A stretch of 41,114 nucleotides of DNA, taken from Chiloscyllium plagiosum. Its lineage: Eukaryota. The stretch covers positions 11,182,111 to 11,223,224 of the forward strand of contig NC_057754.1 in assembly GCF_004010195.1 (NCBI RefSeq). Direction: 5' to 3'. The position numbers and the translations under genes were made by a program. The notes beneath the pieces were generated by a model. It ran no database searches. It saw only the letters and a program-made list of their open reading frames with translations, and was not told the origin of the DNA. Numbering within the stretch: the first letter of the stretch is position 1; every line of letters starts with the position of its first letter. Shown in pieces: positions 2,230 through 35,952 of the stretch.

Positions 2230-3590
2230 TGCGATAACGTGTCTGTGATTACATTCTTCCGACCGCAACATGTATGATTTTAAAATTTAAAGTCTGTACC
2301 ATAAGACTCCAACGAAATAGTCTCATATTCTTGTCATTAAAGCATCTAAAAATGCAAACAGATTGTGATCTGTGCATACAACCATCTCCAACACGTTTTT
2401 AGTGACAAACACATTAAAATGTTATAAGGCCAGTACCAAACTCAGTAGTTCCTTTTTGGTTGTTGAGTATTTCCCCGGTGGATGTTGATCCTCTTCGAAA
2501 AGTAACCAACTGGCAGTTCAATCCCATCTTCATCTTCCTGTAGAAACTCATATGTCACGAGCATCAATAGTGACTCTAAAAGGTTTTGAAAAGTTTGATG
2601 TAGCTGAAACTGGTTTGATGGTTAATATGGCTTTCAAATGGTTGAATGCCTCCTGGCATTGTTCTGTCCACCGAAACTTTGTGTTCTTCTTCAGCAGATC
2701 AGTTAGTGCTGCCACTACACTGCTGAAGTTTGGAACAAACATCTGATAGAATCCACTGAGTCCTAAAAATCAAAGCACCTCTTTCTTCATGGTTGGCTGT
2801 GGAAACTCCTCGATGGCCTTTGTCTTTGTATTCCGTGGGGGTCATCCCTCCATGACCAATGTTGTGTCCCAAGTACATCACCTCCGCTTTTGCGAGTTCA
2901 TTTTATTTAAGTTTATCACCAGTTTTGCTTCTTGTAGTTGTTCAAAGAGCTCTGCCAACAGTACCACGTGATCTTTCCAGGACTTACTGAAGATCGCTAC
3001 ATTGTCCAAATAGACCGCACAGTTTGTTAACCCAGCCACAACTCTGTTCATGAATCTTTGGAATGTGGCAGGTGTGTTCTTCATTCCAAAGGGCATCACT
3101 GATATAGCCCATTTGGGGTTACAAACGCAGAAATGTCATTCGACATCTCTGATAAAGATAGCTGCCAGTACCCATGCATTAAGTCCAACTTGGTGATGTA
3201 ACTGGCTTGTCTGACTTTCTCAATGCAGTCCTTCAATCTAGCAATTGGTAATGAGTCCAATTTTGTAACGGCGTTGACCTTCCGATAATCCATGCAGAAT
3301 CGTTGAGTCCCATCCGGTTTGGGAGCTAAGACGATCAGTGAACTCCGCTCGCTCTGGCTTGGTTCGATGATGTCCTCATTGAGCATGTCCTCCAACCCCA
3401 TCTGGACCTGTCTGGATTTGAAAGGATTAAGCCAAGAGCGATGTTGTTTTATTGGAGCAGTATTATGTACAGCATGTACTACAGCATTAGTCCTCCCCAT
3501 CTGATTCTTACATATGTCCTTATACTGCAGTAATAAATCTTTCAACTGCATTCCAAGACAGACAGACAGCCTACTAACCCCTCCCACTCC
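2230..3590 (-). pseudogene. Gypsy-type reverse transcriptase and RNase H (frameshifted)
   Basis: KPDGTQRFCMDYRKVN, KLDLMHGYWQ, MPFGMKNTPATFQR, YLDN (decayed YLDD), YLGH, FRWTEQCQEAF, IDARDI. Confidence 0.93.
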
Positions 3591-3719
3591 TCAAGGACTT
3601 CTTCATTTTTTAATCTGTTTTGAGGCGTATCAAAATCCACATCATCTGGATTTGATTCCTTACTTTGTGGGGCAGTAAATAACCTGTTCCTCCAGTGCTT
3701 TCTCTCTAGTATAATACAG

Positions 3720-4800
3720 TTTCAATATGTTCACATGACATACTCATTACCTTTTTTTTCTGTCTGGCATCTTTACTAGATAGTTCACCTTACTCAACTT
3801 TTTCTCAATTTGATAGGGACCACTAAACCTGGCTTTGAAGGGATCTCCTATCACTGGTAACTGTACTAAGACATCATCTCCTTGGGAAAACGTCAGAATC
3901 TTAGAGCTTTTATCTGCCGCCTGCTTCATTCTACACTGTGCCCTCTTTAGGTGCTGTTTAGCTAACTAACCTACTCAATTTAGTCTCTCCCTCACCTCCA
4001 ATACATAATATAAGTGTGAGATCTCTGACTTTGGTCCAGTCAATTTTTCTTTAATTAATTTCAAGGGGCCTCGCACTTCGTGACCGAGTATAACTCAAAG
4101 GGAGTGAACTGAGTAGATTCGTTTGGGTCATCTCTAATGGCAAACAGTATAAATGGGATACCTTGATCCCAATCATTCGGGTAACCCTGACAGTATATTC
4201 TCAACATGGTCTTCAAGGTGTGATCCCACCTATCTAAAGCTCCCTGGGATTCAGGATGATATGCACTGGATTTAGAGCGCTGTATACCAAAACTATCTAT
4301 AACCTCAAACAGCTTAGCAGTAAAATTTGACCCTTGGTCTGGTTGAATCTCTCTCTGTAACCCATACCGTGTGAAGAAAGCTACTAACTCCTCTTCTTGC
4401 CTTTATACTCCGTAATGAAACAGCCTCCAGAAATCTGTTACACACATCCATTATGGTTAACAAATATTGGTTCCCATTTTTAGTTCTCGGAAGGAGACCT
4501 ACACGATCAATTATAACCCATGTGAAAAGTACTTCAAATGCAGGAATCAGCAACCAAGGTGCTGGTTTTATTACCGCCATGGCTTGCCTACCATTTTGGC
4601 ATGTATGACACACATGGCAAAAGTTAACCACATCCTTGTGCATTCCAGGCCAATAAAAATGTTTTTGTACCTTAGCGTGAGTCTTTCGTACCCCTGGGTG
4701 TCCTCCTGCAGGTAGTTCATGTGCTACTCATAACACATCTGGTGCACTAAGGCCCATTTCTCCTCTGCAGTGGTCTCCATTTCTGCCTTGGGATTCTACC
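3720..4800 (-). pseudogene. Integrase with GPY/F C-terminal module (frameshifted)
   Basis: CHTCQ zinc-binding motif, IIDRVGLLPRTKNGNQYLLTIMD, AYHPESQGALDRW-like catalytic segment (~4200-4260), ARFSGPYQI. Confidence 0.9.
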
Positions 4801-5272
4801 AGAATATTCTCTGCCTCCTTTTCAGAATACACATCCACATATATATGTTTTATCGTCTTGTCTTGCTGTTGCAAGTCTCTTAACTTATCAGAAGTAAACA
4901 CTTCTGACTGACCTCTGCCTGTTCAGGTCTTTTTTACACCATTATGTCAAACAGCATATCTGCTAACTGAACCTCAACTCCTTCATCTTTCTCTTTACTT
5001 TTCACTTTGTGCTGTGACTTATGATTGTGGGATCTGGATACCACACAGTCTGGGAAAATATCAGGATATTTCTGTTTTAACTCCTCAGTTTCTTGGACTT
5101 CTCCACGAGATGGGGTGTCACTACCACCTTGGATCCTGCCAAATCATTCGCAAGAACAAACTGAATTCCTGAAATTGACACTCTGTCACTCACCCCCACT
5201 GTAACTTCCCCAGTCTTGAGTTTGCACTCCAACCTCATTTTACATAGGGGAATGCTAAATGTCTGTCCATCT

Positions 5273-14450: not shown

Positions 14451-14625
14451 AATTTTTTTTTTTCTTTTTCTGGGTTCTCACTTGCTTCCCTTTTTTTAAT
14501 GTTTTCAACTAATTTCGCAGGGTGTTCGGAAGATCTGGAGTGAAGAGAGTTAAAACCGAGCATCACTTCAGGATCTGACAGAGTCGCCCAGTTTGTTGCA
14601 GCCTGAATATCATTGGATTTTGAAC

Positions 14626-15615
14626 ATGGAAGAAAAAAGCACTGTTCACAGTAGGGAGAAACCGTACACATGTTGTACGTGTGGACAAGGCTTCAGCAGG
14701 TCATCTGCCCTATCACAACATAAATACAGTCACACTGGGGAGAGGCCATTCATCTGTTCCGAGTGTGGGAAAGGATTCACTCGATCGTCCACCCTGTTGA
14801 AACACCATCAGGTTCACACAGAGGACAGACCTTTTAAATGCCCTGAATGTGGAAAGTGCTATAAAAGATCTGAGGCCCTGAAGTTGCATCAACGTGTTCA
14901 CACTGATGAGAGACCTTTCACTTGCTCTCACTGTGGAGCTGGGTTCAAGCAAGCATGTGACCTCATTAATCACCAGCGGATTCACACTGGGGAGAGACCA
15001 TTCATCTGCTCAGAATGCGGGAAAACATTTGCACGGAAATCAATCCTGTTGAGTCACCAGCATGTTCACACAGAAGAGAGACCTTATAAATGCCCAGACT
15101 GTGGAAAGTGTTACAAAAGGTCTGGGGACCTGATGTTGCATCAACGTATTCACACTGATGAAAGACCGTTCAGGTGCTCTCACTGTGGGACTGGGTTTAG
15201 GCGATCATTCCAACTTGCTGTACACCAGCGATTTCACACTGGGGAGACGCCATTCACCTGCACTGAGTGTGGGAAGGGATTCGCTGTGATATCCAGCCTG
15301 CAGAAACACCAGCAACTTCACACAGAGGAGAGACCTTTTAAATGCCCAGATTGTGGGAAGTGCTTTAAAAGATCTGGGAACTTGGTGTCCCATCAACGTG
15401 TTCATACTGACGAGAGACCATTCAGGTGCTCTCAGTGTGGGTCTAGGTTCAAGTGGTCAACACAACTCACTGTACACCAGCGATCGCACACAGGGGAGAG
15501 GCCATACACCTGCACTGACCGTGGGAAGGGATTTGCTATGAAATCTGAGCTGCAGCATCACCAGCGATCTCACACTGGGGAGATACCATTCACGTGCACG
15601 TGGGATTCACTGTGA
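14626..15615 (+). CDS. Tandem C2H2 zinc-finger protein: 10 intact fingers, one degenerate, one frameshifted; terminal exon begins at 14521
   Basis: CxxC-12-HxxxH repeats with TGERP/TEERP/TDERP linkers; ATG at 14626; polypyrimidine tract and CAG acceptor ending at 14520. Confidence 0.88.
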
Positions 15616-15710: not shown

Positions 15711-16497
15711 TGCTGGAAGATCTAATGAACAATACTCTTGACCGTCTCTGAGAGACAACAGTGTATTTTTAGACAACCATGCAGCAGAGAAGCTTGTAGC
15801 TCTATAAAATTCAATTAATTTATGAAGTACTTCAACGATTAACAAGCTTTTAACCGCTAGAGATATCTCAATCAATATTTTTCACCACTCTGGGTTCTGC
15901 AATTCACCCCAAACATTATTACCCATCAGAGTTCGCAACTTGCTAGGTTGGAACTCTTCTTGATCCCTTCCCAATGCCTCCTGACATGGGGTATCTCTGG
16001 CAAAGATATTCTTCAAAGTTCTGTTGAAAATCAAGGATTTTCCTGGCCTGCTTTATGCACTGGTCTCTGTGTCAAAGAGTGTGGTGCTGGAAAAGCACAG
16101 CAGTCAGGCAGCATCAGAGGGGCAGGAGAATTGACGTTTCGAGCGTACGACCTTGATCAGGAATCTTCATCAGGACTTATGCTCGAAACGTCGATTCTCC
16201 GGCTCCTCAAATGTTGCCTGATCAGCTGTGCTTTTCCAGCAACACGCTCTCTGACTCTGATCTCCAGCATCTGCAGTCCTCACTTTCTATTGGTCTCTGT
16301 GCCAATTGTATGCCTTATTTGTAATTATCCATGCATGTGAGCAATCCTGAATGTTTTGTCCCTATTTGATACAGTTGGCAGTTACTGATTTTCTGCAATC
16401 TTAGCTCTTAGCAGAGCTGAATCACGAAGTGTAATTCTACTCACAGCCCATTGTATAGTCTGTTATCAGTTCCTGTTATCTTCAGCTTTATCCAATA
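15711..16497 (-). repeat. Putative 3' LTR of an env-bearing retroelement
   Basis: Termini TGCTGGA...TCCAATA (decayed TGTTGGA...TCCAACA); abuts a minus-strand polypurine tract AAAAGGGAGGAAGA (16498-16511) downstream of env. Confidence 0.65.
16072..16290. mobile_element. Fold-back Penelope-derived mini-element
   Basis: 11-bp TSD TGGTCTCTGTG (16061-16071, 16291-16301); ~70-bp inverted arms (~16076-16149 and ~16179-16250) with GAAACGTC hammerhead remnants. Confidence 0.8.
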
Positions 16498-16922
16498 TCT
16501 TCCTCCCTTTTAATTCAAAGGTTTATCTGAGGATCATCCCTACTGGGTTATTTGTCGTTCAGGGTACCTGCAGACAGTGGTGAGCATTACCTTCTTGCAG
16601 TGATGTATTCTCAGCATTACATTACTTTATTTCAGTTATTTGAAATCCATTTAGACCATTGCATTTACTAAAACTATAGTCATAAGTGTAATCAGTTTAC
16701 AATATCTTACTCACTTCCCTTTTCTGCAGAAAATATATTATTATAAGCTTTCAACGTCTTGCATATCAGTACAAATGAACAAATAGTGAGGAATGCCACT
16801 AACTAGCCACATCTATATTATTCCTACCCGATAGTAAGCAATCATGAGTTATCTTTTAGTGTCTGAGATCAATCCCTGTTGTCAATCCCTTCCATTTCTT
16901 AACTTTCAGTTTTTTTTTATTG

Positions 16923-17266
16923 TATAGAATCCCTACAGTGAGGAAACAGGTCCTTCAGCCCAACAAGTCCACACCGACCCTCCAAATAGTAACCCACCCA
17001 GACTTATTCCCCTGCCCTATATTTATCCCTGATGCATGCACCTAACCTAGGCATCCCTGAACACTATGGGCAATTTAGTATAACCAATCCACCTAACCTG
17101 CACGCGTTTGGACTATGGGAGGAATCTGGAGCACCCAGTGGAAATCTATGCAGACACTAGGAGAATGTGCAAACTCCACGCAGACAGTCGCCCAAGGCTG
17201 GAATCGAACCCGGGTCCCTGGCGCTGTGAGGCAGCAGTGCTAACCACTGAGCCACTATGCTGCCCC
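16923..17266 (-). mobile_element. HE1-type SINE
   Basis: A/B boxes and core on the minus strand. Confidence 0.9.
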
Positions 17267-17269
17267 AAC

Positions 17270-18535
17270 GTTTTGTTTGTTAAAACAATTGCAACAATAG
17301 GTATTGTATAACAATTACAGTAGAAAAATCACATGAAATGCAATTCTGATCCACGGATAGACTTGAATATTCAGTTCCTCATTTCAGGTTTTCCACGAGA
17401 AACGTGGAGCCTGCAAGTCAGTGTCTACGCCTTCTGTGTAAGCTTTAATCTTCTTTTCGTGCGTTGCCCATTAATGGATAACTTCTTTGTCTCGAAAATT
17501 GTCTTCAATCTGCAGTGAAGTGTGGAATAATGGAAGTCCAGGAGGTGCAAACTGCCGTAAAATTTCATCTACATCACTTGGGTGGACAGATAGAGCTATA
17601 TACAGTTTCTCATCGGGTTCTGGCTTAAACAGAATTTTGTGGCTAATAGTTAAGTCAGAAGACTTATTGCGGATCGCCACGTTTTGTTCATCTTGGGTGC
17701 ACCACGTCCTTCCTTTTTATTATCCTTGGGCTATCTTGGTGACATAGTAGGTTTCTCCCACTAAGGTATACTTAAAAGTTTGGTTCTTCACCAGCAGGAT
17801 AGACAATGATCAATTTTTGTAACAGAAAGATCCACACTGAGATAGCCCTTTTATCATTTCTTTCAGACATGCCCAGTGGTTCCCCTGGATTGAAGCCAAT
17901 ACATTCCTTTTTGGAATCCCTTTAGAACTGTAGCATGAGTTGCTGGGTTACTTTGTGATCCAGTTTCTTCTTGGTATTTACTCACATTATGAACTCGCAT
18001 TATGGATGTGTCAGATTGTCCTCATGTTGAGGTATATAAAGAACCACACCAATATAAAGCTGACCTTTATTATTGTCATACGTGCTTAAGACCTGGTTGG
18101 TGAAATTGAAGTTTCTGAGTTGACATGGGCATCTTTGTTCCCACCCAGGTCCTCAGTTGCTCATTTGACACCCAGTCCAGTACTCTATGAGCATCTAATT
18201 GCAGCATATTTGTGCTAACCATAGACAGAAGCCAGCTAATATGTTGAACAAAAACCTGTTGTATTATTGCAGGTTGCCTCATGAGCTATAATGTTGTTGG
18301 TAATATTCTGAAGTGTCTCAGCATTTTGGTGCTTAGGGCTATCTGTGCTGCTTGCTGGCATACCCTACACATTTTTCCTTGATCCTGGTGTTCTTGGCTG
18401 ACAATTATCCTTTTTTCCTCCAAGGAACTTAACTGATCCTTGAAGTCTGCTGTTTTAAGGGTGCTCACAGTGGCCAATCCCGATGCATAGCCTGCTCGTG
18501 CGAATTCTACCAACCCTCTCTTCCTCCTCCTCAAA
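17270..18535 (-). pseudogene. Decayed F-type class I viral fusion (env) glycoprotein
   Basis: Manual translation across frameshifts: RRRKR|GLVEFARAGYASGLATVS...NITNNIIAHEATCNNT...WLLSMVSTNMLQL...YIGVVLYIP...IMRVHNV...NHWAC...CG...W..*NEELNIQVYPWIRIAFHVIFLL*LLY...CCNC. Confidence 0.72.
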
Positions 18536-20098
18536 ATATATATGTTAGAAATTACAAGTGAGAAAGGAAAGATCACTTTTGATGGGGTTGTACTCGGCCC
18601 CCCAATAGTAAGATAGAAAGTGAGAAACAAATATATAGGGAGATCTCAACTATATGTAAACATAATAAGTTGAAATAATGGGGGATTTTTAATGTTCCAG
18701 GCATTGACTGGGACGGCCATAGTGTTAAAGTTACTAAGAATTTGTCAAATGTGTTCAATGAAATTTTCTTTATCAATATTTGGATACTGCTAGTAGAGAA
18801 GGAGCAAAATTTACACCTTTTGGGCAATAATGCAAGGCAGATGACTATAGTAAAAGTGAACGCTTTGGGTCTAGCAAACATAATTCTATTAATTTCAAAA
18901 TGGTTATGGAAGAAGATAAACCTTGCATAAAAATAAAAAGTTTTTAATTGGAATAAGGCATGTTTTAATGATACAAGACAAGAACGTTCAAAAGTTGATT
19001 GGAGTAGATTGTTCGCAGAGAATAGGTTGTCGGACAAGTAGGAGGCGTTCAAGCCTGCGATGCCGTGAGTTCAGCATGTTAGAGAGAAGGGTAAGGCTGG
19101 TAAGATTAAGGAACAATGAATGAGCAAAGATATTGAGATTCCAGTTGAGAATAAAAGAGAATCTTATTTTAAGTGTAGCAAACTTGGCTCAATTGAATCT
19201 GTTAATATGAGGAGTGCAGGGGCATTCTCAAGAGAGAAATTAGGAAGGCAGAGGGAATATGAGATGGCATTGGTAGATTAAGTTAAGGATAATCCAAAGA
19301 GATTGTACAACTACAGCAGTAAGAACAAGAGGGTAACTAGAAAGAGGATAGGGCCTCTTAAAGATCCAGGAGATTGTCTTTGTGTTGAACTCCAGGAGAT
19401 TGGAGACATACTAAATGAATATTTTGCATCGTTTTTGCTGTGGAGAAAGAAATAGAGTAGACAGTGCAGAGATATAAACATTGTTGTTTGAAGAACAGCT
19501 TGCATTACAGAAGAGAACATTGGGGAGGTCTTAGGGAATATAAAAGTGGATAAATCTCCAGGACCTGATTGCATGTATCCCAGAACTTTAAGGAAGAAAA
19601 TTATGCCTTGCAGAGATATTTGTATCATCTATAACTACGGTTCAGGTCGAGAGTTTGGTGCTGGAAAAGTGCAGCGGGTCAGGCAGCATCCACGGAGCAA
19701 GAAAATCAATGTTTCGGGCAAAAGTGGTGAGGTGTCTGATGACTGGAGAGTGGCTAATGTTGTTCCTTTGTTTAAGAAAGGCTTTAAGGTGAAACTGGAG
19801 AACTATAGACCTGTGAGTCTGACTTCATTTGTGGGTAAATCGGTTGGAGGTGATTACAAAAGGTACGATTTATGGATATTTAAAGATGTACAAATTGATT
19901 AGGGATAGTGAGCATGGTTTTATGTGGGGAAAATAGTTTCTCACAAACTTGAGGTTTTTGATGTTGATAATGGCAGAGCAGTAGACATTTATTTGGATTT
20001 TTGTAAAGCCTTTTGCAAGGTTCTGTACGGTAGACTAATTAGTAAAGTTACGTTACGTGGGATTCAAGGTAAACTTGCCAATCGGATGCATAATGGCT

Positions 20099-20915
20099 TG
20101 TTACAAAGTTGAGAGTGTGTATAGTCACTTGAAGAGAGGTGCTTTTTCTGAGCTGAGAGATTGTGACAGCATATGTCTGTCATTAGCCAACAAGTGCTGA
20201 AAATTGATACGTAACCATCTGTTTGGGGTTGTGTTTTGATGTTGAGGCAACTGGATTTGAATTTAACTAATTGATTTAAATTTTCTCAGGATACCACAAG
20301 CCATTTAAATTTGATTGTATTGAAAACGTCGGATTAATGAGAAGGTATGAATCTTGGGGACATAAAACGTCAGGGCATTTTAAAATTAGTCTGAGCTAAC
20401 TGCCTCCGTAGAAATAACCATCACAATCCTGTAAAAGAAATCTCTCAAAGGCATCGTCCATTAAAGGTACCAAGACATTTTATACAAAGATGCAGTAATA
20501 AAGAAAAATCATAGCAGATGACCCTGGGAGAAGACAGGGAATTGGAAAGACAGGAGGAAACACCAGAATTGGAAGGATGAAAGAAAGTAGTGGATTTGGA
20601 ACACCAGGAGAAGACAGCATAACAAACTGTTACCTTAAGGTAATTTGACGTTTAATAATTGTTATTGGATCAGTATTTTAATAGAGTTGGGGTCAGATAG
20701 TGATTTAGTTAAGAAAAAAGGGAGGTTTGGGTTTGTTAATAGTTTTTGTTTAGTGTTCACTGTTAGAATTAAGAAAATAAACTTACTATTTTTCTTTAAG
20801 CAGTGGAAATCGGGTTTTCTTTTGTTCACTCACACTTTTTAGCAGATTGCGAGATGAGCTGATCTGGGTGTTGTAGTTTAAAGTAGCAGAGGGGTTAGAC
20901 CTCCGCATCATAACA
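20099..20915 (+). mobile_element. Solo LTR related to the Gmr1-like LTRs
   Basis: TGTTA...TAACA termini, perfect 4-bp TSD GGCT (20095-20098, 20916-20919); both ends resemble the reverse complement of 1336-2041. Confidence 0.85.
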
Positions 20916-21751
20916 GGCTAATGGCAGGAGGCAGAGAGAAATGGTGGAGGGTTACTTTTCAGACTGGAGGCCTGTGACTAGTGGTGTTCCATAGTGATCG
21001 GTTCTGGGTCCTCTGTTTGTCGTTTATATAAATAACTTGGTTAAGAATAGAGAAGGCATGGTCAGTAAGTTTGTGGATGATAATTTGTGGCACAGTGGAC
21101 AGTGTAGATTACAAAGAGATCCTGATCAAATGGGTCAACAGGTTAAAAAATGGCAGATGGAGTTCAGTCTGAATAAAGGTGAGGTATTGCATTCTGGTGC
21201 AACAACCATGAATAGAACATATGCAGTTAGTGTTTTGGGTAGTGTTGTAGAACACAGGAACCTACAGTAGCAGGTACATGACTTTTTGAAGTTTGCGTCA
21301 CTCATTGACAGGGCGGTTTAAACAGTGTTTGACATGCTTGCCTTGTTTGCTTCGTCCTTTGCATGTAGAAATTATGTTTAGATTGTACAGGACATTGATG
21401 AGGATATTCTGGAATGCTGTGTCCAGTTCTGGTCGCCCAGTTATAGGAAAGAAATTATCAGGCTGGAGACAGTTCAGAATAGATTTACCAGGATGTTGCT
21501 TGGTATGGAAGGTTTGAGTTGTAAAGAAAGGCTGGCACTTTTTTTCACTGGAGCGTAGGAGGTTGAGAGGTGACCTGATTGAAGTTTATGAAATAATGAA
21601 AGATATGGATAGAGTTGGTGGCAGTTTTCCCTGAGATGGGGAATTTCAAGAGTCGGGGGCATATTTTTAAGGTGAGAGGACAGTTTTTTAAAACACATTA
21701 AAAGGCAATTTTTTTTAACACAGAGGGTGGTTTACGTTTGGAATGAATTTT

Positions 21752-22076
21752 TTAAAAAATTACATTCCCTATAGTATGGAAGCAGGCCCTTTGGCCCAAC
21801 AAGTCCACACCGACTCTCCGAACTAGACCCATTCCCCAACCCTATATTTATCCCTGACTAATGCACCTAGCACTATGGGCAATTGAGCATGGCCAGTTCA
21901 CCTGACCTGTACATCTTTGGGTTGTGTGAAGAAACCAGCGCACTCAGAAGAAACCCATGTAGACACTGGGAGAATGTGCAAACTCCACTCAGACAGTTGC
22001 CCGAGGTGAGAATTGAACCAGAGTCCCCAGCACTGAGAGGCTGCAGTGCTAACCACTGAACCATCGTGCTGCCCAT
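21752..22076 (-). mobile_element. HE1-type SINE
   Basis: Core and A/B boxes on the minus strand. Confidence 0.88.
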
Positions 22077-22476
22077 GCGGAAGTGATGGATGCAGGTACA
22101 ATTAGAGTTTAAAAGACATTTGGATGGGTTCATGAATTGGAAAGGTTTTGAGGGATATGGTCCAGGACCTTGCAGGTGGGACACGCTTAGTTAGAATTAT
22201 GTTCAGCATAGACTGGTTGGACTGAAGGGTGTGCTGCTATATGACTACATGTAAATTCACTACTACTGACTTGTTTCCTGTCAAAGAGCTGCCGGGTAGT
22301 GCTATTGCAGCAGGATGGTACTAATATGTACATCAGATTAAACACATCCTGGTCCTAGAGTATTTCTTCCATGTCTTCCAATACTATTCTTTCGCCCCCT
22401 GTATCTGTGTGAGATTTGCTACACCATGGCTCTCAGTTAGTTCCAGGAGTCATGATGATGGTAGTTGGTTGGCTTA

Positions 22477-22812
22477 CACTAAAATCCATGAGGGGCATAA
22501 ATAGGGTAAACAGACAAGGTCTTTTACCTGGGGTGGTGGAGTCCAGAACTAGAGGGCATAGGTTTAAGGTTAGATGGGAAAGTTTTAGAAGGGACCGAAG
22601 GGCCAACATTTTCATGTAGAGCATGGTGCGTGTATGGAATAAGCTGCCAGAGGAAGTGGTGGAGGCTGGTACATTACAGCATTAAAAAGGCATCTAGATG
22701 AGTATATAACTAGGGAGGATTTGGGGGCTAGATTAATTTAGCATATCTGGTTGGCATGGATGAGTTGGACCAAAAGGACTTTTTCCATGCTGCACATCTC
22801 TATGACTCTGAT
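22477..22812 (+). mobile_element. CR1 LINE 3' end
   Basis: MRGINRVNRQGLLPGVVESRTRGHRFKVR; similar to 405-765. Confidence 0.88.
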
Positions 22813-31025: not shown

Positions 31026-31049
31026 TGTTTGGACGGTTATAATGGAGGA

Positions 31050-34000
31050 TGTACAAAGTTAAATATCACACAACACCAGGTTAAAGTCCAACAGGTTTAA
31101 TTGGAAGCACACTAGCTTTTGGAGCGTCGCTCCTTCATCAGGGCTCAATCCTAACACAGAATTTATTGCAAAAATGTACAATGATGTAACTGAAATTATA
31201 CTTTGAAATATTGATTGTCTATTAAGCCTTTCATCTGTTAGAATACCGTGATAGTTTCACTTCTTTCATGTGTAAATCACAAACTTTTAAAAAAAATGTT
31301 GCATTCTCGGGTTAGCTGTTAACAATGGCGATAGCTAGACAATATGTTGAAGGTGTTGGCCCCCTGTGTTCTCTGTCTATGCCATGATGTTTAGATTGAT
31401 TCTAATCTAAAATGTGAGATAACGGAGTTTTACATGAATGCATGCAGTTTTTGAGCAAAGTACAGTGTAACCCTGAAAGTACAAATTCACTCCACAAAAT
31501 ATATGTGTGCATGTGGGTCTTTGTCTGAATGTCTGTGTGTGTCTGTCTGGGTTGTGAGTGTGAGAAAGTGTATGTGTGTGTAGTGAGGCAGAGTGTATTA
31601 AGTCTGTGAGGGGTGCATGTGGGAGTGTGTGTGTCGGTAAAGGTGTGTGGGGGTGTCTGTGCGCATCTGTGTGTATGTGTATATAGGAGTGCCAGTGTGT
31701 GTATGTGTAGGAGTATCTGTGTGTGTGTATAGTGCAATGGTGGTCACCTGTAATGTGACATGAACCCAAGGTCCCGGTTGAGGCCCTGCCTATGGGTACT
31801 GAACTTAGCTATCAGTCTCTGCTCGGCCACTTTTCTCTGCTGCCTGTCCCAAAGTCCACCTTGGAGGATGGTCACCTGAAAGTCCGAAGCTGAATGTCCT
31901 GGACCACTGAAGTGTTCCCCACTCCTGTCTGGGAGGGAACACTCTTTTCTGTTGATTGTTGTGCGGTGCCCATTCATCTGTTGTCGTAGCGTTTGCTTGG
32001 TTTCCCCAATGTACCATGCCTGCAACATATAAGATAGACAACATTGGCTGAGTCACGTGAGTACCTGCCATGTACAAGGTGGGAGGTGTTCCCACGCGTA
32101 ATGGTGGTATCTATGTCTACACTGACATGTCTTGCAGCGCCTACCATGAGAGGGTTCTATGGAGTTGGCCTGAGAGCCGGGCAGCTTGCAACGAACAATG
32201 ATCTGTTTGAGGTTTGGCGGTTGTTTAAAGGCAAGTAGTGGAGGTGTGGGGAAGGTCTTGGTGAGGTACTCATCCTCATTGATAATCAACAGACGGGAGT
32301 GTTCCCTCCCAGACAGGAGTGGGGAACACTTCAGTGGTCCAGGACATTCAGCCTCGGACTTTCAGGTGACCATCCTCCAAGGTGGACTTCAGGACAGGCA
32401 GCAGAGAAAAGTGGCCGAGCAGGGACTGATAGCTAAGTTAGGTACCCATAGGGAGGGCCTCAACTGGGACCTTGGGTTCATGTCACATTACAGGTGANNN
32501 NNNNNNNNNNNNNNNNNNNNNNNNNNNNNNNNNNNNNNNNNNNNNNNNNNNNNNNNNNNNNNNNNNNNNNNNNNNNNNNNNNNNNNNNNNNNNNNNNNNN
32601 NNNNNNNNNNNNNNNNNNNNNNNNNNNNNNNNNNNNNNNNNNNNNNNNNNNNNNNNNNNNNNNNNNNNNNNNNNNNNNNNNNNNNNNNNNNNNNNNNNNN
32701 NNNNNNNNNNNNNNNNNNNNNNNNNNNNNNNNNNNNNNNNNNNNNNNNNNNNNNNNNNNNNNNNNNNNNNNNNNNNNNNNNNNNNNNNNNNNNNNNNNNN
32801 NNNNNNNNNNNNNNNNNNNNNNNNNNNNCGCCTACCATGAGAGGGTTCTATGGAGTTGTCCTGAGAGCCGGGCAGCTTGCAACGAACAATGATCTGTTTG
32901 AGGTTTGGCGGTTGTTTAAAGGCAAGTAGTGGAGGTGTGGGGAAGGTCTTGGTGAGGTACTCATCCTCATTGATAATCAACAGACAGGAGTGTTCCCTCC
33001 CAGACAGGAGTGGGGAACACTTCAGTGGTCCAGGACATTCAGCCTTGGACTTTCAGGTGACCATCCTCCAAGGTGGACTTCAGGACAGGCAGCAGAGAAA
33101 AGTGGCCGAGCAGAGACTGATAGCTAAGTTAGATACCCATAGGGAGGGCCTCAACTGGGACCTTGGGTTCATGTCTATACACCATTGCACTATACACACA
33201 CACAGAAACACTCTCACATACACACAGGCACTCCTATACACACATACACACGGACACACATGAGACGCGCACACAGACACCCACACACAACCTTACAGAC
33301 ACACACGCTCCCACACTCATACATGCACCCCCTCACAGACTTAACTACACGCACACATACACTTTCTCACACTCAAAACCTCCAACCCAGACAGACACAC
33401 AGAGAGACAAAGACCCACATGCATACATGTATTTTGGGGGGTGAATTTGTACTTACAGGGTTACACTGTACTTTGCTCAAAAACTGCAAGCATTCATGTA
33501 AAACTCCGTTATCGCACTTTTTAGATTAGAGTCAATCTAAACATCATGGCATAGACAGAGAACACAGGGGGCCAACACAATCTCTCCACGCTTCAGGTCT
33601 CTATGCTACTTTCTCCCCACCCCCACCCTCCTCGAGCTTATCTCTCCACGCTTCAGGCTCTCTGCCTTTATTCCTGATGAAGGGCTTTTGCCCGAAACGT
33701 CGATTTTGCTGCTCGTCGGATGCTGCCTGAATTGCTGTGCTCTTCCAGCACCACTGATCCAGAACCTTCAACATTTTGTCTAGCTATCACTATTGTTAAC
33801 AGCTAACCCGAGAATGCAACTTCTTTTAAAAAAAGGTTTTGTGATTTACACCTGAAAGAAGTGAAACTATCACGGTATTCGAACAGATGAAAAGCTTAAC
33901 AGACAATCAATTTTTGAATGTATAATTTCAGTTACATCACACTGTAAATTTTTGCTATAAATTCTGTGTTAGGATTGAGCCCTCCACTACCACCTAATGA

Positions 34001-34114
34001 AGGAGCGTCGCTCCGAAAGCTAGTGTGCTTCCAGTTAAACCTGTTGGACTATAACTTGGTGTTGTGTGATATTTAACTTTGTACACCCCAGTCCAACACC
34101 GGCATCTCCAAATC
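31050..34114. mobile_element. Penelope-like element with long inverted arms (contains a gap)
   Basis: WYIGETKQTLRQQMNGH, EHFSGPGH, EQRLIAKF in both orientations; ~31050-31960 is the inverse of ~32975-34085; CA/TG-rich tracts; possible decayed TSD ATAATGGAGGATG / ATACTGGCCGATG. Confidence 0.9.
33670..33705 (+). ncRNA. Minimal type I hammerhead ribozyme motif inside a ~185-bp insertion (33579-33763)
   Basis: CTGATGA-A-GGGC-TTTT-GCCC-GAAA-CGTC with palindromic ACGT stem III; stem I is weak. Confidence 0.6.

Positions 34115-35189: not shown

Positions 35190-35952
<763 letters not shown>

Follow-up and report, generated by a model that had tools for sequence, protein, structure and literature searches.

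Which retrovirus left the broken envelope gene that lies on the minus strand of a 41,114-nucleotide stretch of the Chiloscyllium plagiosum genome (contig NC_057754.1, positions 11,182,111 to 11,223,224; hereafter the window, with coordinates counted from its first letter), and is that envelope an F-type fusion protein? The original prediction, made from the letters of the window, read the locus as the 3′ end of an enveloped long terminal repeat (LTR) retroelement with an F-type envelope (Env), and proposed that it was loki-like or otherwise undescribed. We conclude, with a probability of roughly 0.8, that the window holds the decayed 3′ end (env, polypurine tract (PPT) and LTR) of one copy of an old class III endogenous retrovirus (ERV) family of clade Huo that resembles snakehead retrovirus (SnRV) and whose env is likely of the F type. 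The copy itself is a dead fragment that encodes nothing functional today.

The envelope motifs reported earlier are all present in minus-strand frames of the window: the basic site RRRKR (18531-18517), a Gly/Ala-rich peptide, five glycosylation sequons and the start of a transmembrane (TM) segment, dispersed between 18531 and 17291 over three frames with many stops. The proposal that several small open reading frames (ORFs) are pieces of one glycoprotein holds, as an uninterrupted 745-residue protein of the stingray Hypanus sabinus (XP_059838750.1, hereafter P0013) aligns collinearly with them; its residues 290-715 match 18531-17291 at 34-35% identity (tblastn, E 2e-48), and at least six frame changes are needed along this stretch to follow it. 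The CCNC motif placed after the TM segment is most likely off-frame, since other copies and another frame of the window have hydrophobic residues there.

Protein database searches returned homologs from a catshark and two stingrays only, all annotated as uncharacterized. The Hemitrygon akajei protein (XP_072911529.1) is likewise uninterrupted at 745 residues and 96% identical to that of Hypanus sabinus, while the catshark homologs are the Scyliorhinus torazame sequences XP_072331073.1, GCB63499.1 and GCB79950.1; a search of 1.84 billion representatives gave three catshark matches. Identity to pieces of the family is 27-37% for the catshark and 34-55% for the stingray homologs. A homolog search with a 118-residue piece of the env gave none among 285 candidates, and viral and metagenome contigs searched for intact relatives yielded nothing useful, with one match at 31%. 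The N-terminus of P0013 is hydrophobic; its basic site is preceded by 294 residues and followed by 451, and nine cysteines lie in this second part. The basic site, a hydrophobic fusion peptide, two helical regions and a TM segment are all present, and the helices are the confident parts of both AlphaFold models obtained. A gamma-type Env was considered and rejected: neither P0013 nor the intact solo ORF described below has a CX6CC or CXXC motif, and their post-cleavage subunits (451 and 464 residues) are not of the short TM type. The original prediction was right to see here the 3′ terminus of an enveloped LTR retroelement whose post-cleavage subunit is long and not gamma-type. The stingray pair is accompanied, in one species, by a truncated 319-residue paralog at 95% identity (P0013, P0014 and P0015). 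The stingray proteins may represent a co-opted gene; because this paralog exists, a young ERV is as likely.

We consider this envelope very probably homologous to F-type class I fusion proteins, the fold itself being a prediction. In the ESM Atlas, the first match of the catshark protein P0008 is the Fusion glycoprotein F0 cluster (score 0.95, 201 features), 47% of whose members carry PF00523; Baculo_F comes next, and eight of the ten best matches are in agreement. Shuffled proteins reach a first match of 0.95 about once in 100. A structure search of the Atlas with P0013 is also led by Baculo_F and Fusion_gly (F0) clusters, and the feature and structure rows agree but count as one source. Several results weigh on the other side. 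The structural matches have TM-scores of 0.34-0.44, under the bar, and full-length P0013 reaches a feature score of just 0.80-0.86 with coronavirus spike first. Pfam returned no fusion-protein match on the window frames, on P0008-10, on P0013 or on two other env types, and PF00523 searched against the shark's own genome had no match, nor did the controls give any. Sequence and profile searches of the PDB found no fusion protein, only a weak match to the end of HIV gp41 (E 0.18). The AlphaFold models are poor, with a predicted local distance difference test (pLDDT) value of 50 for P0008 (18 alignment rows) and 41 for P0013 (40 rows, after two of 42 were removed because MAFFT had misplaced these C-terminal pieces), and Foldseek comparison of both with BFVD and PDB gave no match at E 0.001. 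The F-type assignment of the original prediction is therefore backed by the Atlas matches, whereas Pfam, PDB profiles, AlphaFold and Foldseek do not confirm the fold.

The original prediction looked to fuller copies for the identity of the element, and copies with two LTRs and pol were found in the same genome. The env stretch gave 53 matches at 67-79% identity (one of them the window itself) from the 40 of 59 candidates that were scored, and a clean LTR used as query gave 49 matches when 40 of 240 candidates were scored. Flanks were taken for 17 env-bearing copies: pol lies upstream of env in 13 of them, and the window's LTR stands at both ends in five of eight copies examined. The order gag-pol-env, with protease, reverse transcriptase (RT), tether, RNase H and integrase in pol, is recovered as remnants, gag from a weak zf-CCHC match (E 0.065) and its position. 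In copy L021, Pfam places RVT_1 over the cut-off (E 1e-8) and zf-CCHC, rve and RT_RNaseH_2 below it, in retroviral order. The primer-binding site (PBS) is complementary to tRNA-Asn(GTT); among the 14 loci with the complementary motif, five are tRNA-Asn genes ending there.

The sequence suggested earlier to be an LTR (15711-16497) belongs to a dispersed LTR repeat with 4-bp target-site duplications (TSDs). Both edges could be taken from 19 of 30 LTR loci tested, and 16 of these lack a PPT or PBS. A 4-bp TSD is exact in four of the 16 and matches at three of four bases in another four; the 16 include one duplicate pair and one 3′ LTR. Tests at 5 and 6 bp gave no signal, none of the 16 reaching four of five bases at 5 bp. 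A full copy on contig C3 is flanked on each side by identical 4-bp sequences, unlike one on C29. By its two LTRs, TSD, PBS, PPT and gene order, the family belongs to the Retroviridae. All copies seen of this family (family A) are broken, and their LTR pairs have diverged by a Kimura two-parameter distance of 0.16-0.26. This corresponds to about 36-59 million years at the mammalian rate used by Wang and Han (2020; PMC7947760), while the tenfold slower shark rate assumed by Han (2015; PMC4422223) leads to an implausibly old age; the family's age is large but uncalibrated. A 325-bp fragment of the env also occurs in nine near-identical copies on contigs C1, C4, C7, C11, C16, C24, C28, C31 and C39 (L037-L040, L055-L060). 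Two of them are 99.7% identical over 393 flanking bases, and the fragment is apparently carried by a younger repeat.

The RT of the fuller copies speaks to the retroviral lineage. Using the supplementary RT alignment of PMC7947760 and a foamy virus chain from the PDB, we counted identities by eye over 52 columns from motif A between copy L035 and six references. SnRV shares 36 positions, WDSV 27, foamy virus 25, and HERV-L, Loki-Lch and Loki-Aro 22 each, the last two being the ones counted among 24 lokiretroviruses. Three family copies carry the motif LPxGFH; the PFG motif present in all 24 loki RTs shown in that alignment appears in none of 17 loci, most of which are too decayed to show either. 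Because of the 36 of 52 identities to SnRV against 22 of 52 to two lokiretroviruses, and because PFG is absent, we place the family as SnRV-like, class III, clade Huo, a placement made by hand count and motifs and not by a tree with references. The loki-like affinity proposed earlier is not supported: the full copies have SnRV-type RT motifs, and none carries the loki PFG. Nor does an F-like env point to lokiretroviruses by itself, as the foamy virus Env also has an F-like core (Fernandez et al., 2024; PMC11468914).

In the PDB, the L035 RT matches foamy virus (1e-26), MLV (1e-16) and Ty3 (1e-14), and the linked pol matches one with a tether and a second RNase H. The closest named matches are frog and coelacanth pols labelled automatically as NYNRIN-like or Gypsy integrase-like. 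An RT tree built without named references (short pieces of L031 and L095, under 95 residues, were omitted, and L135 gave none) separates family A and a second family, B, introduced below, into distinct supported clades among frog, coelacanth and unnamed pols. Two points tell against the SnRV placement: it comes from a hand count and motifs, with a tree that contains no SnRV, loki or foamy RT, and the family's neighbours on the integrase side carry NYNRIN-like names while the loki integrase has been reported as nearest CGIN1, so that names alone do not separate the groups. One of the frog SnRV-like pols, P0004, has at residues 1214-1291 a hydrophobic signal-like stretch followed by an Ig-like domain (Pfam Ig_3, E 0.012); this extension might be where an env carrying an Ig domain begins, or might come from a fused gene model. 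The window also holds a decayed Gypsy-like pol (RT, RNase H and integrase; 2320-4883, minus strand) that is unrelated to the ERV family; it is only 26-37% like the family pols and falls far outside them in the tree.

How else might the locus be read? A lokiretrovirus, which would be the first in cartilaginous fish, could explain the F-like env, a hallmark of that group, and the NYNRIN-like labels of the best named RT matches; a 2020 screen recorded lokiretroviruses in none of six chondrichthyan genomes (PMC7947760, Fig. S1). We judge it very improbable given the RT counts and LPxGFH where the lokiretroviruses show PFG; moreover, the pre-cleavage part of Loki-Xtr Env has about 115 residues, against 294 in P0013. 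A wholly foamy-like ERV was tried and rejected on the RT count (25 against 36 of 52), the lack of a match to the solved foamy Env and the CCHC knuckle seen in gag. Foamy Gag is not known to have a CCHC knuckle. A closer rival keeps the SnRV-like pol and gives it, by retroviral descent or by swap, an Env like that of foamy viruses or of epsilon-type fish retroviruses, with the same deep F-related core but not of paramyxovirus type, and differs from our explanation mainly in naming and origin. In its favor, the best RT matches in the PDB are foamy, the core of foamy Env is common to paramyxovirus and pneumovirus F (PMC11468914), and the Envs of epsilonretroviruses belong to neither the gamma nor the beta type. 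Foamy Env is unlike P0013 in its N-terminal signal and its pre-cleavage part, as P0013 has an ordinary N-terminal hydrophobic signal ahead of its long pre-cleavage region. With no sequence or profile match to foamy Env in the PDB, and with ESM matches to F0 and Baculo_F, we regard this rival as conceivable though unlikely.

The envelope might instead be an unrelated class I-like glycoprotein whose long helices give it a generic resemblance to F. The lack of any hidden Markov model or Foldseek match would fit, as would the haemagglutinin and spike clusters that score in the Atlas too. A first match at 0.95 is however rare among shuffled proteins, the feature and structure rows concur (as a single source), and the F layout is matched by a post-cleavage subunit of 451 residues that contains a Cys-rich core, so that we think this quite unlikely. 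Hardest to credit is a cellular gene or an errantivirus-like Ty3/Gypsy element. Invertebrate Gypsy elements with an F-type env exist, and the window contains the Gypsy-like relic mentioned above. Yet the linked pol scores with foamy virus and MLV far above Ty3, the pol it matches has the tether and second RNase H, and the relic lies outside the family pols; a cellular gene, which the original prediction had named among the outcomes that would count against it, is excluded by the LTR, PBS, PPT and TSD. We thus return to a SnRV-like class III ERV with a likely F-type env, and read the parts of the window copy against its relatives as follows.

22253-22495, minus strand: C-terminal remnant of the pre-cleavage (F2/SU-like) env subunit; tblastn match to P0013 residues 197-286 (E 7e-5), DNA match to copies L021 and L033, junction at 22249.
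18536-22248, no strand assigned: younger repeat block of about 3.7 kb (CR1-type pieces on the plus strand and a short interspersed element (SINE)) inside env just ahead of the cleavage site; not provirus, as env is unbroken there in other copies.
18466-18531, minus strand: furin-type basic site RRRKR (18531-18517) and predicted fusion peptide; the stingray and catshark homologs carry the same site.
17291-18516, minus strand: broken post-cleavage (F1-like) subunit with helical region, Cys-rich core, Trp-rich membrane-proximal region and TM start; collinear with P0013 290-715, with stops and frame changes throughout.
16924-17260, minus strand: SINE within the env cytoplasmic tail; multi-copy in the window (D6, D9, D15) and missing at this site in other copies.
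16856-16913, minus strand: last part of the env cytoplasmic tail, with its stop codon; copies L024, L028 and L036 match from 16913.
16498-16511, minus strand: PPT; the same tract precedes the 3′ LTR in copies L024, L032, L085 and L086.
15736-16497, minus strand: 3′ LTR, about 545 bp without its insert; matches both ends of full copies.
16071-16288, no strand assigned: high-copy palindromic element of 218 bp within the LTR; 7119 first-look candidates, matches on both strands, 70% identical to its own reverse complement.

The predicted PPT is confirmed at 16511-16498. The LTR-like unit is a true dispersed LTR, although it ends at 15736 and not at 15711, and it holds the palindromic insert; family LTRs end in TG...CA, and the window LTR has one change at each end. 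The distance of about 0.75 kb first given between env and PPT was too long: the SINE splits the env tail, and the true 3′ untranslated region is about 350 bases. As to the parts thought to be missing, neither the window nor the adjoining 20 kb yielded gag or pol of this copy, whereas the pre-cleavage subunit still has a C-terminal piece at 22495-22253, beyond the repeat block. Within that block, an RT frame at 19492-19902, which we take from its motif to be of CR1 type, accompanies a SINE of family D6/D15. The LTR lies about 120 bases from the open-frame end of the first of two arrays of C2H2 zinc fingers (84-bp repeat; 14554-15615, plus strand, and 35279-35912). Further away, 31047-34088 contains inverted as well as direct repeats (I2, I3, I5, I14, I16 and D5) that are nested and 93-99% identical, and that look like a fold-back or DNA-transposon-like element; part of it matches an insert in copy L033.

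Related envelopes persist elsewhere in this genome. A search with P0013 gave 63 matches from the 60 of 632 candidates that were scored, and revealed the younger family B and one uninterrupted 754-residue ORF. Family B (L111-L130, on several contigs) has a related env at 25-28% identity to P0013 and an RT of the LPQGFH type. Its pol lies upstream in seven of nine loci, its terminal repeats are 92-96% identical in four loci, and the copies seen have breaks or assembly gaps. The solo ORF (G000:C6:90924329-90926593, on contig C6; L117:7730-9994, L131:1530-3794) is 24% like P0013 and homologous to it over 499 columns (hhalign, 99.4%). Apart from one decayed relative, L134 (G000:C6:10773671-10773950; 32-70% identity over pieces), it is single-copy, and this relative shows that the solo ORF likewise derives from an ERV lineage. 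About 18 kb upstream and 14 kb downstream contained neither a pol nor a second LTR that could be found, and a splice-acceptor-like sequence stands just before its ATG. This one genome contains at least three distinct lineages of such likely F-type envelopes, 22-28% alike.

The solo ORF was found in 12 sequencing runs of four organisms. Four of 24 listed runs were compared with it, with 40 of 329 differences listed. One run shows 11 differences in 2436 bases, another is 97-98% identical and the most distant about 92%. In this last run, which has both flanks in common, there are no indels in 1889 ORF bases against seven listed in 539 flank bases (P 0.011 if the seven represent three events), and divergence is about 8% inside the ORF and an implied 18% or so in the flanks. 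Its contig gap counts equal the flank indels listed; one contig of the middle run has two gap letters that could not be assigned a position. Because indels are confined to the flanks in the most distant run, the comparison suggests selection on the reading frame and makes the solo ORF a candidate co-opted env. The contig sets were only guessed to be RNA, and they include unspliced upstream DNA; no run containing the ORF was entered as RNA. In a single genuine RNA run, sampled at 2 in 100, the ORF is covered about one read deep at most. An exact look-up of the ORF and of two family-B pieces showed that they are not in the collection. We tentatively entertain, at somewhat less than even odds, a broader picture in which F-type env is old and recurrent in SnRV-like retroviruses of sharks and rays and one or more of these envelopes (the solo ORF, perhaps the stingray protein) became domesticated as a syncytin-like or restriction gene.

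In the history we propose, the ancestral virus would have made its Env from a spliced RNA, and a host furin-type protease would have cut it at the basic site, freeing the Gly/Ala-rich fusion peptide. The N-terminal and membrane-proximal helices would then collapse into a six-helix bundle, fusing membranes as paramyxovirus F does, while the extra 200 N-terminal residues, which vary between lineages, may bind the receptor. Repeated invasion of the germ line would have been followed by decay, with solo LTRs left behind; the copy in the window would have lost gag-pol and then been split by the CR1 block, the SINE and the palindromic element.

SnRV-like ERVs in a cartilaginous fish are already known (PMC4422223), and F-like env has been described on lokiretroviruses and, structurally, foamy viruses (PMC7947760 and PMC11468914); the family described here combines a SnRV-like pol with a likely F-type env in a shark. 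Our literature search, with subscription journals and bioRxiv supplements outside its reach, turned up no account of SnRV-like or shark ERVs that carry an F-like env, and none of an F-type env co-opted by sharks or rays. If our reading is true, this would be a third retroviral lineage with an F-like env, on a SnRV-like pol of sharks and rays. It would bear on whether the F-like Env is ancestral and the gamma- and beta-type Envs came later, a question for which PMC7947760 lays out four scenarios. Screens baited with gamma- and beta-type Env would miss such elements. The intact homologs are natural, foldable proteins for a test of the fold, and a single-copy env, if conserved, would be a candidate for a captured fusogen in fishes of which many species bear live young.

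Among known systems, the F proteins of paramyxoviruses and pneumoviruses and of baculoviruses and errantiviruses resemble the family env in having a basic site, a fusion peptide at the N-terminus, long helices, a core rich in Cys, and a C-terminal helix with a TM segment; the family env differs in its extra 200-residue N-terminal region and in lying below Pfam detection. Foamy virus Env offers a retroviral parallel in its core resembling paramyxovirus and pneumovirus F (Fernandez et al., 2024; PMC11468914), but the solved structure is unmatched by our sequences and the RT is nearer SnRV. Lokiretroviruses (Wang and Han, 2020; PMC7947760) share gag-pol-env between LTRs, the tether and RNase H, and an Env with a basic site; their Env resembles PF00523, a likeness that the family env would share if it is of the F type. 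They differ in RT type, loki RTs forming a clade that is sister to all other retroviruses, and in their shorter pre-cleavage part, and some members have an smc gene.

SnRV and the class III ERVs of clade Huo are the nearest relatives in RT motifs and core positions. The SnRV Env probably also has a long TM subunit without an immunosuppressive domain (ISD), in which case an F-like env may be the usual envelope of part of the clade. The clade has been reported from all major vertebrate lineages (PMC6001957). In the elephant shark, CmiERV lineage I (Han, 2015; PMC4422223) likewise combines a SnRV-like pol in a cartilaginous fish with two LTRs, but its env, read by eye from the supplementary DNA, has an ISD-like stretch and CX6CC and is of the gamma type. 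Another SnRV-type pol with a gamma-type env has also been reported. Because SnRV-like pols carry both gamma-type and likely F-type env, at least two envelope types occur on them, and envelopes have probably been swapped.

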